This document shows, piece after piece, positions 26,549-31,168 of a DNA stretch of 64,000 bases. How positions within the stretch are numbered: position 1 is the stretch's first letter; every line of letters begins with the position of its first letter. Under the pieces are notes generated by a model. The model searched no databases and was not told the DNA's origin. It saw nothing but the letters and a program-made list of their open reading frames with translations. This DNA is from Escherichia coli (GTDB taxonomy: Bacteria; Pseudomonadota; Gammaproteobacteria; Enterobacterales; Enterobacteriaceae), in the NCBI RefSeq assembly GCF_003019035.1, contig NZ_CP027447.1; one strand, given 5' to 3'. The position numbers and the translations under genes are program-made.

Positions 26549-29500
26549 TTATTTCACCTGCATCCCGGTCCATTCGCTCCCTGCCGCAACACTTTGCTGT
26601 GCAGGTGCATAGGAACGCACATAACGAGCAGGAGGCAGAACGAATTGCCCTTTTTGCGAGAAGCGCAGCAAATGGCGGAAAGTGACCGTTCCCGTCAGTT
26701 CTTTCACCGGCACCATATAGGCCAGTTCGCCCATTTCATTGCGCGCTTTTTCCAGCAATTGCCCCTGCTGTTTCGCGGCGTTGGGTTTATTGACCGAAAT
26801 GCCCCATGTTGTGCGCTCAACATCGGCTCCCGGCGGGAGCGGTACTTCCACCTGACCATAGCGCAGAACTGCATCCTGCTCGCTGGTAAGCGTGATTTCA
26901 TCGAGATACAGCGCATCGCTGTCAATCTCATTGCTGGTCACCGGCTGCAGAGTAAAGCTCATCTCTTCTTCACCGGGGATAAGCCGATACAACTGGCGTT
27001 CAACGGTCACCGGAATGTTACTTTGTTGAGCCGTTTTTGCCGGTTCACGCCAGCGGACCTGCACATTTTGCGGCGATAATTCGTCACCAAAAGAGAGAAT
27101 GTCCGGCACGCCCTGACCAACCCAACGCCAGTATTCGCCCCCTCCAGTTAACTTATGTTTGGCCCATGCGCCCGCAGGCGCAGGCAAAACAACTGGAGGC
27201 ATTGTCGCCATATATTTCGCCAGCCAGTTCATGGCCAGCGCGCGCTCAATAGTAGATTGCTCAGCGGTCAAACCACTTAAAATAGCAGCCGCCTGGGTAG
27301 CGTCGCCCCCGCTATTGAGCAGCACAACCGTGTGCGCCAGCGGCTGATTGCTGTTTGCCGCTTTATCCCACGCATATTGCTGAACCTGTGGCATCACAGT
27401 GGACTTCAACTGCGCTTTTTTCAGCAACGTCATGGTTAAGACGTTTGCCACCGCATCTGCCAGTGGAGATTCAGGTGTATCGAGGATCAGGCTGTCATTG
27501 ATATCGCGGGTGTCTTCCTCAGAAAAATCTTCAGTTTTAGTTCCGCGCCGGGCGATAGCTTCATCCAACCCTTTCAACAACGTTTTGCACGGCAGATTCA
27601 TCTCCTGCGCCCACGCCAGCACCAGCGCCCGATGCAATAACGGCATGTTATCTGCCTGCTCGGCATAACTGTCGAGCATATGCTGCCAGTATTCCGGTTG
27701 TTGCGTTACGCCGAGCGCCTGGCTGGCCTGCCAGTCGGCGTACCATGCCCATGCCGTAAGGAAGGCGTCACCATTGCCATCTTCACCCCACCAGGTAAAG
27801 CGCGCTCCGGGCCCCGCCAGTTGCATCAGCCGCAGACGGTTATCCTGAATCATCTGACGAATGTCGTTAGCGGCGGCACTTTGATGATCGGCAAGCGAAC
27901 GCCAGGCGAGACTGAGCGGGATCAGACGGCTACCGGTGTTGATCACCCCACCCCACGGTTCATCGACTAACGCATCAAGATTGTTGCGGAAAATCTCCTG
28001 CGGCGTTTCACTACTTTGAAGCCGGATATTGCTCGCCTGCTCGGGCAACATCAGCGCGTTCTCGCCACCGCCGAGCATGACATTTTTCTGCTGTTCAACG
28101 GGCCAGCTGTTGTCCACAAAAGACAGTTTTGTGCTAATGCTGTCCTGCACTTGCCCATTTTGTTGCAGTTCTGCACTTAACAAGCCAGATTGCTGAATAT
28201 TCTGCGTCAGCGAAATATAATTCGCCCCTTTGTGCAGCGTCAGCGTCTGGCGCATCTCAGCGCCTGCAAATTTAGTCACCAGCGCCACCGGTTCGTTATC
28301 CTGCTGACTGAAGATAAACAGTCCTGCCGCCGGTTTGTCGCCCACGCGATACACCGTTGGCATACTCCACTTCATGTAGAGATTTTTTTCCGAACGCAGA
28401 TAAGCACGCCCCTGCCCGACCAGCCCGTCGCCGTTCATCCCACGCGCGGTGATACGCCAGCGGGTTAACGAATCAGGCATCAGGAACGTGAAATACGCTT
28501 TGCCTTGTTTATCGGTTGTGAGTGACGGCATCCATGCCGCGGTATCCACCTCTTCACGCCGTGGACGTTCAAGCATTTTTACTCGCCGCTCGCTGCGGTT
28601 AGTTGCGCCAGGCGCAACCGGCTCGCTGGAGAGCGCCTGGTCGTAGCTGATAAACGACAAACTGGAGCTGGTACGCACATTGTTACGCCCCAGCGGATAG
28701 AAAAATTTGCCGATATTCGGCGCGATTTCCGGTTGCAGCGCGTAGATCATTTCATCGACCACGCCTACCGTTAACTGCGCAGAAACAGGTTTACCTTTCA
28801 GCGACGAGGTTAATTCGACATTGACCAGTTCACCAGGCTGGTAATGGGTTTTGTCCGTTTTCACCCGGATATCCAGCTGGGGAACGGCAACTTTGATCCC
28901 GGCGTTCTGAAAACTGTACTGACCGTTACGGGTATACAGCACCGAAAAAGTGATGTTAGGCGCAAAGGAATTGCTCACTGGAACCCGGGCTTCATACTGG
29001 GTATCGTTTAAACGTTGTAACGTCAGCCAGTTTGCCGGATGCGAAAGCAGCGACTGCTGTTCCACGCGATCGCGTTCCAGCGTCAATAATGCTTCATCAA
29101 TTGGCTCCGGAAAGGTAATCAGCATCTTCGCAGTTTCGCCTGGCTGATACAGCGTTTTATCCGCCACGATACCTACCGTACCAGTATGCGCCGTGCTGCC
29201 CTTACCGCTGACGGCATGACTTAACCCAGCGAGAATTAAGCCGTCTTTATCGCGTAATGTCAGATTGTAGTTGCCAGGTTTAGCGAAATTGACGGTAAAG
29301 GATTTGCCGCCTGACGGTAGCTCTCCGCTATGGCTCGTGCGGTCTTCGAGACGCAACCATTCATACGTAACAGGAACCTGTTTTGAAGATTCCAGCGCGG
29401 CATAACGGAACACAACCGATTCACCGCTATTACTGTATTGTGCGGCAGTACTTAATGAGTAATGTGCCAGTCCACGTTCAATGAGGATCTCTTTGGTGGT

Positions 29501-31168
29501 GGTGACACGATACGCCGCACCGTCACTGGCGGAGACGGTTAACAAATAGCGGCTTGGTTTATCTGCGGCGGGGAGATTTAACGCCACATGACCGCTATCG
29601 TCGGATACCGTTTCACTGCCTTCCAGCGACACGGGAAAACGTCCGGCATAACGCAAATCGTTACCGACCATTGATAATTGCTGAGCGCGCAAACTTAACT
29701 GCACACGGGCATCTTTTACCGGCTCACCATCCGGGTAGAGCAGTTGCAGTTTGCCGCTGACCGCTTCGCCAGTTTTGAACTCTTTTTTGTCGAGAGCTAA
29801 GCCAATCTCGAAATGTGGCTTGATGTAGTTTGCCACGCGAAAACTACTGCTATAGACCTGATTGCGGTAAGCAAGACGTAACTCATAACCTCCGGCAACG
29901 GCATTTTCTGGCAGGCGGAAACTCCCCTGCCCGCCATTGCGCGCATCCAGCGTGACATTGATGGTTTGCAACAGACTGCCGTTAGCGTCCAGCACCGAAA
30001 GCTTCGCCGGGGCGCTGACGATGGGGGATGAATGCAACGGATCGTGGAACTCGCGCCCCATCACTTTAACATCGACACGATCGCCTGCGCGATATAGCGG
30101 GCGATCGGTAAAGATATACAAGCGGGTGTTGTAGATTTCACTTTCGTAGAAGAAGTTCTCGGAGACAAAAACGCCGCCTTCCGCATCTTTACCCAGAATG
30201 TATGAGCGTTCCGGCGATATATGTTGTAACTGCAAGGTACCGCTGTCATCGGTCACCCCGCGTGTCATCACGCCAAGACCGTCAGTCCACAGGATCTCTG
30301 ATCCCGGCTTCGCTTCACCCTGTATTTTACCTGCGGTCCACACCAGAAGCTCGTTACCTGACACTTTGCTAAGCGCCACGGTATCGGAAACAAACACCAC
30401 CGTCGTCGCCCGATACCCACCTATCATCGCCTCGACGAGGTACAATCCCGGCTCTTGTTTGCCGAGAGGAATATAAATGTTACCCGGCTGCGGCAAGATG
30501 AAATTGTTGGATGCGCCTTCCAGTTTTACCCCTTGCTGCGGCTCGACCGGTTTAGCCTGCCATAGTGGATAACGGAATTGTTCCACCAGTGGATATTTTT
30601 TCAGCGGTGAAAACTGGCTGTTCTGTACATAACGGGAAGGTTTAACAATGGCATTACCGAGCTGTAATTCGGGTAACGCCTGAGTCACATTCTGCCGTGA
30701 CTGAGAAGAGAAAGTACGCTGCATTACACGGCGAGATTTGCCATACCAGTTATCCCACAGCCAGGTCAGCGTATTGTTTAGCCCGTCGCCCAGATATTGC
30801 GGTTGCACCACAATGCGATGCAGGTTTTTCTGCTGGCGCAAAAATGCCATCGGGTCAGGAATACGATACAGGCGAACGTCCACGCCACCGTACTCTTCCA
30901 TCTGATAGCGTCGATAATCACGCCCCGGCGCTTCCAGTCGCACTTTCGCCTCTTCACTGCTGCTAAAACTGCTGTCAGCGAGCAAAAAGAATGTTCCCCC
31001 GGCGGGCGGCGCATAGTTACTGGAAGGAAGCGAATCATCAGCATTAGCAAGCCCTGTTCCCACAAGAGACAGGCAAAAGCACGCTGCTATCGCGCCAGAA
31101 AATTTAAACGATAAATGCCAATGAAATTGGGATTGGAATCGTTGGGTATCCATCGGGTGTCCTTCCAT
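26549..31168 (-). CDS. yfaS: YfaS, alpha-2-macroglobulin family protein, full-length (1539 aa by ORF track; start may be the ATG at 31153)
   Basis: Single uninterrupted ORF; N-terminal hydrophobic signal-like segment; only 3 Cys and no CxEQ thioester motif in the translation. Confidence 0.85.

Follow-up and report, generated by a model that had tools for sequence, protein, structure and literature searches.

The yfaS gene in the 64,000-nucleotide stretch of Escherichia coli DNA analyzed here (the window) encodes an alpha-2-macroglobulin (A2M) family protein with no CxEQ thioester motif, which raises the question of how such a protein would act and what its four partner proteins are for. The answer that we consider quite probable is that YfaS is a periplasmic Type II A2M of the yfaA-yfaT-yfaS-yfaQ-yfaP operon, in which the thioester has been lost, protease retention is non-covalent and the partners are ancestral. 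Thioester-less Type II bacterial A2Ms encoded in multi-gene operons are not new and are described in the literature, and the absence of the thioester from YfaS alone is textbook-level repetition that matters little; the value for the specialist is that the exact thioester site and the pocket remnant were located, and that YfaS is still strongly constrained. The features of the locus are listed in Table 1.

Table 1. Features of the yfaS locus, with positions in the window and the supporting evidence.
Feature	Position	Strand	Description
yfaS CDS, most likely start	26549..31153	minus	ATG 31153, MDTQRF..., 1534 aa + stop
Maximal yfaS ORF	26549-31168	minus	ATG 31168, 1539 aa; residue numbering used throughout
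Predicted Sec signal peptide of YfaS	31040..31153	minus	ORF residues 6-43, MDTQRF...GTGLANA/DD
MG2 macroglobulin domain	29834..30124	minus	Residues 349-445; Pfam PF01835, E = 1.4e-26
A2M bait-region domain (A2M_BRD)	28736..29170	minus	Residues 667-811; Pfam PF07703, E = 2.2e-17
Bait segment	28553..28633	minus	Residues 846-872 (27 residues); counterpart of MagD bait ANRSERG 847-853
A2M domain	28295..28543	minus	Residues 876-958; Pfam PF00207, E = 3.6e-12
TED homologue, all-helical	27212..28003	minus	Residues about 1056-1319; AlphaFold2 and Foldseek
Thioester-site remnant EPWGGVIN	27938..27961	minus	Residues 1070-1077; aligns with ECAM Y1183-P-Y-G-C1187-L-E-Q1190
Cys1194	27587..27589	minus	In TED helix; sole Cys of predicted mature protein
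C-terminal macroglobulin domain(s), CTMG/bMG10	26552..27166	minus	Residues about 1335-1538; Pfam bMG10 and AlphaFold2 beta-strand domain
S1519-Y1520	26609..26614	minus	Counterpart of CTMG pocket Met-Tyr, ECAM M1634-Y1635; family alignment
yfaA (DUF2138, MagB-type partner)	31707..33395	minus	Pfam PF09909, E = 5.6e-286; RefSeq
yfaT (DUF1175/MagC family, NlpC/P60-like)	31087..31710	minus	Pfam PF06672, E = 5.5e-58; RefSeq
yfaQ (tandem DUF2300, MagE-type partner)	24899..26548	minus	Pfam PF10062, E = 9.4e-91; RefSeq
yfaP (DUF2135/YfaP_C, MagF-type partner)	24118..24894	minus	Pfam PF09906, E = 4.5e-18; RefSeq; signal peptide

The ATG at 31153 is likely to be the start of yfaS, judging from a Shine-Dalgarno sequence (AAGGA) 6 nt upstream and from the same MDT... 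start with 1534 codons in the K-12 yfaS pseudogene and in the ORFs of Escherichia sp. E1V33, E. whittamii and E. albertii. The sole strongly hydrophobic 19-mer of the protein covers residues 23-41 (Kyte-Doolittle 1.81), and the homologues of YfaS carry signal peptides with an AxA-type end (mostly QA) followed by an acidic residue and a conserved P-x-S-x-Y. In terms of a possible lipobox, IAAC at residues 27-30 formally fits, with only about seven hydrophobic residues preceding it; the hydrophobic core continues through IAAC to ANA/DD, and relatives carry ordinary signal peptides. RefSeq annotates yfaA, yfaT, yfaQ and yfaP around an 'alpha-2-macroglobulin family protein' gene, the start of which omits the signal peptide and hence two of the three Cys residues. 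A cluster of 40,950 sequences is without the signal peptide, and the start codon assigned to E. coli YfaS in RefSeq is probably wrong in a systematic way.

The sequence-only reading had reported three Cys residues and no CxEQ motif in YfaS, and both observations were reproduced: Cys was found exactly at positions 30 and 32 (AIAACFCLS) and 1194 (MNLPCKTLL) of the 1539 residues, and the motif scan of the reading frame returned zero matches. The scan of all six frames of 26001-31700 gave one out-of-frame 'CTEQ' six codons past a stop, which was rejected as a hidden thioester and regarded as a chance match. The possibility that a frame or sequencing error hides the motif, raised in the same reading, was checked and no such error was found, the DNA of the locus being 100% identical to that of E. 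coli SCU-301; sequencing error was also rejected as the cause since other Escherichia species share GGV[IV]N at this position. With an assumed Cys background of 1.1%, far more than three would be expected in 1539 residues (binomial P = 4e-5); the absence of CxEQ alone is what is expected by chance and matters only given the A2M homology. Cys30 (31079-31081) and Cys32 (31073-31075), both on the minus strand, are inside the predicted signal peptide, so that mature YfaS would have one Cys, C1194. As the one Cys left in the helical domain, C1194 lends itself to a rival explanation in which YfaS traps covalently by another reactive centre such as this residue, or in which the motif is masked by a sequencing or frame error. 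We consider this explanation extremely improbable, because the Cys1194 column is not conserved in the 24-sequence family alignment, where Val is the majority residue, many family members including MagD have zero Cys, no in-frame or frame-shifted CxEQ was found, and the sequence is that of an independent complete genome with the site conserved across species. A Cys at 1194 was confirmed for E. coli and E. albertii only.

The domain annotation of YfaS, which had been suggested as a check, was obtained by Pfam for MG2, A2M_BRD, A2M and bMG10 (residues 1414-1522, E = 3.6e-6), and by AlphaFold2 and Foldseek for the helical TED, for which the Pfam search of YfaS gave no match. The AlphaFold2 model of residues 870-1539 (pLDDT 88.7, pTM 0.85) shows a twelve-helix domain with two MG-type beta domains on one side and a C-terminal beta domain on the other, and the best Foldseek match of the model was native ECAM (5A42, E = 2e-23) along with SaA2M (4U48), followed by C5 and C3, with E values from 1e-23 to 1e-20 for these four. 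Among the features of the A2M superfamily, the MG and bait-region domains, the TED and the C-terminal MG domain were found in YfaS and CxEQ was not, and YfaS keeps the complete A2M architecture of MG, bait-region, helical thioester and C-terminal MG domains. Type I ECAM (YfhM, E. coli) and SaA2M (Salmonella) have the same overall domain architecture and are the closest solved structures to YfaS (profile E about 3e-13, Foldseek E about 2e-23 for the native forms). Complement C5, also among the best fold matches, resembles YfaS in combining the MG/TED scaffold and proteolytic activation with no thioester. Chicken ovostatin and insect Mcr are further eukaryotic A2M/complement proteins that naturally lack the thioester; unlike YfaS, these eukaryotic proteins are secreted or tetrameric, have no operon partners and represent independent losses.

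ECAM and YfaS share only about 21-22% identity, but their thioester-region segments align residue by residue. The suggested comparison with YfhM/ECAM set YPYGCLEQ against EPWGGVIN, in which the two Tyr are replaced by E1070 and W1072, Cys by G1074, Glu by I1076 and Gln by N1077, and this alignment was given by BLASTP against K-12 YfhM, by family alignments with YPYGCVEQ of orthologues in the same columns, and by the profile match to 4RTD. Among the thioester-pocket residues, which were named for ECAM in PMC4498604, Met is lost in YfaS (M1519S) and Y1520 is the only one kept. ECAM is characterized by CLEQ (C1187), by the pocket of Tyr1183/Tyr1185 and Met1634/Tyr1635, and by pbpC as its neighbour, of which YfaS has one pocket Tyr only; ECAM also has a lipobox (LAGC), while a lipobox in YfaS is doubtful. 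The CLEQ and Tyr/Tyr, Met/Tyr pocket typical of Type I are represented by E1070, W1072, G1074, I1076, N1077 and S1519, and pbpC (PBP1c) in K-12 adjoins yfhM at a locus different from that of yfaS. Since both bond-forming residues (Cys to G1074, Gln to N1077) as well as pocket residues (Y1070E, M1519S) are replaced, thioester chemistry is impossible in YfaS, and any trapping would have to be non-covalent; non-covalent action is the reasonable reading of these replacements.

The alignments further demonstrate a specific dismantling of the thioester apparatus, from YPYGCxEQ to EPWGGVIN and from pocket Met-Tyr to Ser-Tyr. If the comparison is limited to positions with 85% or more conservation among Cys-bearing members, the systematic differences of the Enterobacterales are only those at 1070, 1074, 1076 and 1077 and two unrelated positions. 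The pocket Met covaries with the thioester Cys: Met-Tyr is kept in 40 of 41 Cys-bearing members in comparison to 6 of 27 Cys-less members (Fisher 3e-11, phylogeny not corrected for).

Across the yfaS/magD-operon family, clustered at 50% identity, GCxEQ is kept in 34 of the 42 full-length cluster representatives at 32-52% identity. The 80 species loci divide into 11 with YPYGCVEQ, 60 with YP[YW]GGVEQ, 8 with EPxGGV[IV]N and 1 with YPYCGVEQ, and GCxEQ is kept in 11 of the 72 loci from Pseudomonas and other non-enterobacterial species. On a neighbour-joining tree without support values, the losses of the Cys fall in about ten or more distinct lineages. These comparisons indicate that the family ancestor had the canonical thioester, the motif of which many living members keep, and that a single loss would account for the Enterobacterales clade. 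In MagD and most Pseudomonas the sole change is Cys to Gly; in the Enterobacterales the Cys, Gln, Glu and first pocket Tyr are replaced clade-wide, while replacement of the pocket Met is confined to some of the clade. The GGV[IV]N state appears to be old and stably maintained, being common to Escherichia, Superficieibacter, Serratia, Yersinia and Edaphovirga.

Type II bacterial A2Ms are defined in the literature by the absence of the thioester, and YfaS lacks it; as a definition of the operon family this absence appears poor, since most members have the motif. Tentatively, and with somewhat more doubt than confidence, we suggest that the division between a Type I with thioester and pbpC linkage and a Type II with the mag/yfa operon and without thioester conflates two independent characters, and that the operon family is ancestrally one of thioester proteins with an ECAM-like Tyr/Tyr and Met/Tyr pocket, with the two studied members, YfaS and MagD, among about ten or more independent losses. 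If this is true, repeated loss with the whole complex kept would make covalent capture dispensable for the core function, would point to a bait-triggered switch or scaffold with peptidoglycan-active partners more than to a classical inhibitor, and would provide natural covalent/non-covalent pairs inside one genus, Pseudomonas. The close pairs of P. citronellolis versus P. nitroreducens or P. aeruginosa could serve to test the role of Mag/Yfa and the weight of covalent capture.

The four partner genes share the order yfaA (DUF2138), yfaT (MagC/DUF1175), A2M gene, yfaQ (DUF2300) and yfaP (DUF2135) across the family, and this synteny was kept in all 83 related loci examined, wherever the flank was sufficient. 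YfaA has an N-terminal transmembrane helix (a hydrophobic segment of 19 residues). YfaT has a signal peptide, a weak NLPC_P60 match and the retained 'DCAGL' Cys of NlpC/P60, and the 3' end of its gene overlaps the yfaS start by 67 nt. YfaQ has a signal peptide and a SpoIID-like segment (E = 7e-6), with its start adjoining the yfaS stop. Beyond the operon lie gyrA and atoB. The operon comprises five or six genes in the family, and the same operon together with an intact YPYGCVEQ was found in P. citronellolis, P. panipatensis, P. indica and distant relatives at 33-39% identity. The thioester-bearing operon relatives as a whole (P. citronellolis, P. panipatensis, P. indica, P. knackmussii and many uncultured lineages) are 33-55% identical to YfaS over the full length and have the same partner-gene order and the same conserved bait-proximal segment, but unlike YfaS they still have YPYGCxEQ and the Met-Tyr of the CTMG pocket, and from these they are predicted to trap covalently; the motif Cys is the only, or nearly only, Cys of their mature proteins. 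In the papers on bacterial A2Ms that were consulted we found no description of thioester-bearing mag/yfa-operon members.

The sequence-only reading had combined non-covalent trapping with the proposal that loss of the thioester explains the four partners. The first part is supported by G1074 and N1077 and by the parallel with MagD, whereas the second is contradicted, as the same operon occurs in Cys-bearing and Cys-less loci. Its occurrence with intact-motif orthologues would make the partnership older than the loss and independent of it, so the partner proteins appear to be an ancestral complex and not a compensation. The idea that the partners replace the thioester is thus removed, given that they accompany thioester-bearing and thioester-less versions alike.

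MagD (PA4489) of the P. aeruginosa MagABCDEF complex is 53% identical to YfaS over 1522 aa, and the family tree places both in one clade; the 53%-identity cluster, named by its sources 'alpha-2-macroglobulin MagD [Pseudomonas aeruginosa]', has 0 Cys. The two are alike in gene order (DUF2138, MagC/DUF1175, A2M, DUF2300, DUF2135), in the missing thioester Cys and in a signal peptide without a convincing lipobox, and YfaA resembles MagB in its N-terminal transmembrane helix. A MagA paralogue is located upstream in P. aeruginosa, while none is present in E. coli, where the operon has five genes, or in the Enterobacterales. YfaS can accordingly be taken as the enterobacterial orthologue of MagD, a Type II bacterial A2M, as is already known. 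The MagD site, EYPYGGVEQ, differs from the canonical motif by Cys to Gly only, with Glu, Gln and the two pocket Tyr unchanged, whereas in YfaS further substitutions affect Glu, Gln, the first of the pocket Tyr and the pocket Met; with this more eroded site the behaviour of YfaS may differ.

The Cys-free character of the Type II class and the periplasmic, inner-membrane associated location of MagD have been described (PMC3735191). The MagD bait was determined by experiment, and MagD holds TEV protease after bait cleavage without a covalent link, although cleavage by TEV in vitro was incomplete; MagB anchors and stabilises MagD, and in vivo processing to a 100 kDa form occurred only with MagB present (PMC5764988). 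The representative of the MagD cluster, P0297, has ANRSERG at 847-853 in agreement with the published bait, and the NRSER core is common to YfaS and MagD. The C-terminal half of the YfaS bait segment is the highly conserved half, with R861, K864, E867, R868, P869, R870 and R871 each conserved at 90% or more across 68 family members. The baits of classical A2Ms are reported to be hypervariable. The unusual conservation of this bait-proximal segment is more in keeping with a site for dedicated processing than with a bait open to many proteases.

By analogy with the MagD experiments, YfaS would be exported via its signal peptide and held at the inner membrane by single-pass, MagB-like YfaA and by YfaP; bait cleavage (ATNRSERR...) would bring about a conformational change and non-covalent retention of the protease, and YfaS may in this way help to protect the periplasm from proteases that enter it or from effectors that target peptidoglycan. 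What does not fit a pure protease trap is the protection conferred by the mag operon against peptidoglycan-targeting T6SS effectors, VgrG3 (lysozyme-like) and Tae1 (PMC12663445, 2025). This protection is one of the points that favour a rival explanation, namely that YfaS is not a protease inhibitor but a bait-triggered switch or scaffold which senses envelope damage and regulates or positions YfaT and YfaQ or sequesters peptidoglycan hydrolases, covalent capture being dispensable and repeatedly lost. The loss of the thioester in about ten or more lineages with the operon and the rest of the protein conserved, the nearly invariant bait-proximal residues (R861, K864, E867-R871), the MagB-dependent 100 kDa processing, the retained YfaT Cys and the YfaQ SpoIID-like segment point in the same direction. 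We nevertheless regard the switch as the less likely explanation, with perhaps a minor chance of being correct, since MagD keeps hold of the protease after bait cleavage in vitro and most family members retain a pocket-protected thioester, from which covalent capture would be the ancestral activity.

A further rival holds that E. coli yfaS is a decaying gene about to become a pseudogene, with the motif absent through simple loss of function. In K-12 MG1655, yfaS is annotated as a pseudogene and codon W1373 has become a nonsense codon, and many truncated E. coli forms (959, 999 and 1362 aa, O157:H7 included) were found among the homologues; given the inactivation in K-12 and the truncation in several other lineages, yfaS is dispensable under some conditions. 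The results showed that the dN/dS of yfaS was 0.046 to 0.058 in comparison to other Escherichia species, and 0.03 to 0.09 for the TED; values of about 0.05 demonstrate strong purifying selection on YfaS. This largely refutes the decay reading, which we consider very unlikely also because the ORF is intact in the window, GGV[IV]N is old and maintained across five enterobacterial genera, and the clade-specific replacements are limited to thioester residues. In addition, of 5426 complete E. coli genomes, 5425 were found to contain the locus, and 5178 of these matched the 9.6-kb operon query in one place over at least 80% of its length; these are counts of presence and not of ORF integrity.

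The yfaS gene was found by the ORF list and translation to be one open reading frame of 1539 codons, and a script placed the three cysteines counted in the sequence-only reading at residues 30 and 32 (AIAACFCLS) and 1194 (MNLPCKTLL), with no others. This count (3 of 1539) is well under an assumed cysteine background of 1.1% (P = 4e-5). The C-x-E-Q motif, which had been described as missing, was indeed not present in the YfaS frame when the translation was scanned; this absence is by itself statistically unremarkable and matters only because YfaS is an alpha-2-macroglobulin (A2M) homologue. 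A sequencing artefact was excluded, since the DNA is 100% identical to that of E. coli SCU-301 and 5425 of the 5426 complete E. coli genomes carry the locus. The explanation that the motif is hidden in another frame was also rejected, as the six-frame search for C.EQ over 26001-31700 gave as its sole match an out-of-frame CTEQ six codons past a stop, and hence no usable CxEQ. Pfam matched MG2, A2M_BRD, A2M and bMG10 on YfaS and did not match the thioester domain (TED) model, and the NCBIfam scan of YfaS gave no matches.

Two forms of bacterial A2M were reportedly first described by Budd et al. in 2004. Type I A2Ms (YfhM, also called ECAM, and SaA2M) carry CLEQ, a lipobox and an adjacent pbpC, while Type II A2Ms are without thioester and lie within a multi-gene operon; MagD of Pseudomonas aeruginosa is periplasmic and inner-membrane-associated, binds MagA, MagB and MagF, and requires the single-pass MagB for its stability and in-vivo processing (PMC3735191; PMC5764988). 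TEV protease stays bound to MagD non-covalently once the bait is cleaved (PMC5764988), and in 2025 the mag operon was shown to shield P. aeruginosa from the peptidoglycan-targeting T6SS effectors VgrG3 and Tae1 (PMC12663445). Type II is not covered in PMC9918453. Over 1522 residues, YfaS shares 53% identity with a cluster of 4290 members named by its sources 'alpha-2-macroglobulin MagD [Pseudomonas aeruginosa]', the sequence of which has zero Cys and carries ANRSERG at 847-853, as published for MagD (PMC5764988). A thioester-less YfaS is thus already known, and both the observation and the first inference drawn from it, that YfaS traps, if at all, without a covalent bond or else has another role, restate existing knowledge, being consistent with the non-covalent retention of TEV protease by MagD.

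Features of the yfa operon and of YfaS (residue numbers follow the 1539-aa open reading frame)
Feature	Window position	Strand	Description
operon yfaA-yfaT-yfaS-yfaQ-yfaP		minus	between gyrA and atoB; RefSeq annotation and Pfam agree
yfaA		minus	DUF2138; N-terminal TM helix
yfaT	31087-31710	minus	DUF1175, now named 'MagC' family; weak NlpC/P60 match; signal peptide
yfaS	26549-31168	minus	A2M gene
yfaQ	24899-26548	minus	tandem DUF2300 and SpoIID-like stretch; signal peptide
yfaP		minus	DUF2135; signal peptide
bait segment, residues 846-872	28553-28633		conserved residues in the C-terminal half
W1373	27050-27052		site of the K-12 nonsense codon; gene intact in the window
[quoted passage not shown]

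To locate the counterpart of the thioester site, 70 full-length homologues were aligned, and residues 1064-1085 of YfaS fell in the same columns as LDDLLAYPYGCVEQTASRLLPL of many Pseudomonas orthologues. The same segment aligned by BLASTP to IKELKAYPYGCLEQTASGLFP of K-12 YfhM, which holds the ECAM thioester Cys1187; the P. citronellolis orthologue likewise aligned to the YfhM thioester segment, and the family profile matched ECAM (4RTD) there. ECAM and SaA2M in the PDB were reached only with the family profile, the single-sequence phmmer search of YfaS against the PDB giving nothing beyond a marginal C5 match. An AlphaFold2 model of residues 870-1539 (pLDDT 88.7, pTM 0.85) showed a 12-helix domain (~1056-1319) preceded by two MG domains and followed by a beta domain at the C-terminus, and Foldseek ranked native ECAM (5A42, E = 2e-23) and SaA2M (4U48) at the top, followed by C5 and C3, with activated conformers fitting worse than native ones. 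Taken together, the alignments, the model and the structural matches show that the TED scaffold of YfaS is intact, with the reactive site E1070-P-W1072-G-G1074-V-I1076-N1077 replacing Y-P-Y-G-C-x-E-Q. The 'PVEQ' at 1024-1027 was considered as a degenerate thioester site and rejected, because the family alignment placed it in a variable beta-strand region that is non-homologous to the true site at 1070-1077. The ECAM thioester pocket is formed by Tyr1183 and Tyr1185, which are both Tyr of YPYGC, and by Met1634 and Tyr1635, which lie in the C-terminal MG domain (Fyfe et al., PMC4498604), and these four residues correspond to E1070, W1072, S1519 and Y1520 of YfaS. The match of the Met-Tyr pair rests on its near-C-terminal position, the common M-Y-x-P context and the outgroup alignment rather than on structural superposition, and the hhalign alignment of the family profile with ECAM ended ahead of the CTMG domain.

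A scan of 1.84 billion cluster representatives (E <= 1e-30) gave 858 relatives. The results showed that GC[VITA]EQ is present at the aligned site in 34 of 42 full-length representatives (whole-query alignment, 32-52% identity), the other eight reading WWGAEG, YHSLEQ, EGSAEQ, WGGVEQ, YGGVEQ, HGGVEL, HDGVEH and AGTVEQ. Among 80 species-representative genome loci, YPYGGVEQ or YPWGGVEQ was found in 60, among them most Pseudomonas with P. otitidis included, YPYGCVEQ in 11 (e.g., a single lineage of P. viridiflava as well as P. citronellolis, P. panipatensis, P. indica and P. ullengensis), EPxGGV[IV]N in 8 (e.g., Escherichia species, Superficieibacter, Serratia and Edaphovirga) and YPYCGVEQ in 1 (P. 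jinjuensis). This last form, with the Cys one position N-terminal of the canonical GC, was seen in two Pseudomonas orthologues, from P. jinjuensis (locus L065) and P. schmalbachii (protein P0107). On a neighbour-joining tree rooted with a more distant A2M group, CxEQ is the ancestral state and about ten or more lineages have lost it here and there, the Enterobacterales grouping as a single clade with one common loss.

Outside the signal peptide, the Cys-bearing members have no Cys, or hardly any, other than that of the motif. Of 41 ingroup members with the Cys, 40 have the pocket Met-Tyr, as do all five outgroup sequences, in comparison to the Cys-less members, in which Met is kept in only 6 of 27 and Tyr in 26 of 27. 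The association of the pocket Met with the Cys is strong by Fisher's test (P = 3e-11, with phylogeny not corrected for), and the Met replacements are distributed over many separate loss lineages. Since the pocket Met relaxes once the Cys is gone, it is very probable that the motif Cys of these relatives makes a protected thioester like that of ECAM. In itself, the covariation is a clean natural case in which a pocket residue has relaxed once the reactive bond was lost. Type II is defined in the literature by the absent thioester (PMC5764988); the sequence evidence obtained here indicates that the yfa/mag-operon family was ancestrally thioester-bearing and for the most part still is, which, along with the mapping of the remnant site and its pocket, is what the analysis adds.

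The sequence-only reading had gone on to propose that YfaS needs its four partner proteins because it lacks a thioester. By tblastn, all four E. coli partners were found, in order, in essentially every locus, whatever its motif state. The operon of the Cys-bearing P. citronellolis reads YfaP_C, DUF2138, MagC, A2M, DUF2300 and YfaP_C, and two distant metagenomic members, with 39% (CVEQ) and 33% (CTEQ) identity, lie in the order DUF2138, MagC, A2M and DUF2300, one of these two loci additionally having YfaP_C. Because Cys-bearing genes occupy the same operon, this second inference is contradicted and the idea that the partners compensate was rejected, which is a further addition; of the original interpretation, the non-covalent half therefore stands and the half concerning the partners does not. 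The Enterobacterales operons (loci L009-L016) have five genes and the Pseudomonas operons (loci L017-L088) six, the sixth being an extra YfaP paralogue (MagA) 5' of the DUF2138 gene and ~40% identical to E. coli YfaP. As for the partners themselves, the 'DCAGL' catalytic-Cys motif of NlpC/P60 type is retained in YfaT, and YfaQ contains its SpoIID-like segment and 8 Cys. Both look peptidoglycan-directed, which fits the way the mag operon shields cells from T6SS effectors that target peptidoglycan.

When the comparison was limited to positions with 85% or higher conservation among the members that carry the Cys, the Enterobacterales differed systematically only at 1070, 1074, 1076 and 1077 and at two unrelated positions. 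The dN/dS of this YfaS against other Escherichia species was 0.046-0.058, and 0.03-0.09 within the TED. Such site-specific erosion along with low dN/dS indicates that YfaS is a maintained rather than a decaying protein, which, as far as its sequence tells, has lost nothing but the covalent chemistry. Decay as a pseudogene was considered, given that yfaS of K-12 MG1655 (b4500; 3799-8403 of locus L006) is a pseudogene in which W1373*, a single nonsense codon with zero indels, truncates the C-terminal MG domain, and it was rejected on the basis of the dN/dS. Other truncated E. coli forms in the protein database are 959, 999 and 1362 aa long, O157:H7 among them.

Baits of classical A2Ms are reportedly hypervariable. 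In YfaS, by contrast, R861, K864, E867, R868, P869, R870 and R871 reach at least 90% conservation across 68 sequences, down to ~30% identity, and this suggests that the conserved half of the bait, with its many dibasic motifs, is a dedicated site for processing or recognition. The analysis established the architecture, the remnant site, the operon, the purifying selection and the signal peptides or TM helix of the partners. By analogy with MagD, YfaS would be exported to the periplasm and tethered at the inner membrane via YfaA plus YfaP, its bait would be cut near ATNRSERR with a conformational change on cleavage, and the protease would then be retained non-covalently, as one element in defending the envelope. 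In the main rival reading, YfaS would chiefly be a cleavage-triggered switch or scaffold for peptidoglycan-active partners, or a binder of peptidoglycan hydrolases, in favour of which are the repeated thioester losses, the unusual conservation of the bait-proximal segment and the T6SS phenotype (PMC12663445).

RefSeq/PGAP annotates YfaS with 1504 aa from a GTG start at 31063 (10064 in locus L001), and the protein cluster that uses it numbers 40,950 members. The GTG lies 30 codons 3' of the likely ATG (31153), which has an AAGGA Shine-Dalgarno 6 nt upstream, and its use removes the sole hydrophobic N-terminal, signal-peptide-like segment. The K-12 annotation, Escherichia sp. E1V33, E. whittamii and E. 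albertii have 1534-codon ORFs starting MDT. The RefSeq start is probably a systematic start-site misannotation, since it deletes the signal-peptide-like segment of a protein that has to be exported to the periplasm. With the ATG, residues 6-43 would be a predicted signal peptide ending ANA/DD, and its cleavage would take away C30 and C32; a lipobox-like IAAC is present at 27-30, but with just ~7 hydrophobic residues ahead. The yfaS start sits 67 nt within yfaT in a different frame (31087-31153), and the 'MDTRR..HLS'-like N-terminal extensions annotated in some Serratia and Pseudomonas orthologues may simply be conservation of the overlapping MagC/YfaT C-terminus. At the other end, the yfaS stop lies directly against the yfaQ GTG start with zero spacer (26546-26551), and some E. 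coli entries (e.g., proteins P0037, P0040 and P0057) are annotated as YfaS-YfaQ fusions. In the 90% cluster of P. aeruginosa MagD, protein P0339, seen on 105 contigs, is labelled 'MG2 domain [Acinetobacter baumannii]', which probably reflects a mislabelled or contaminated assembly.
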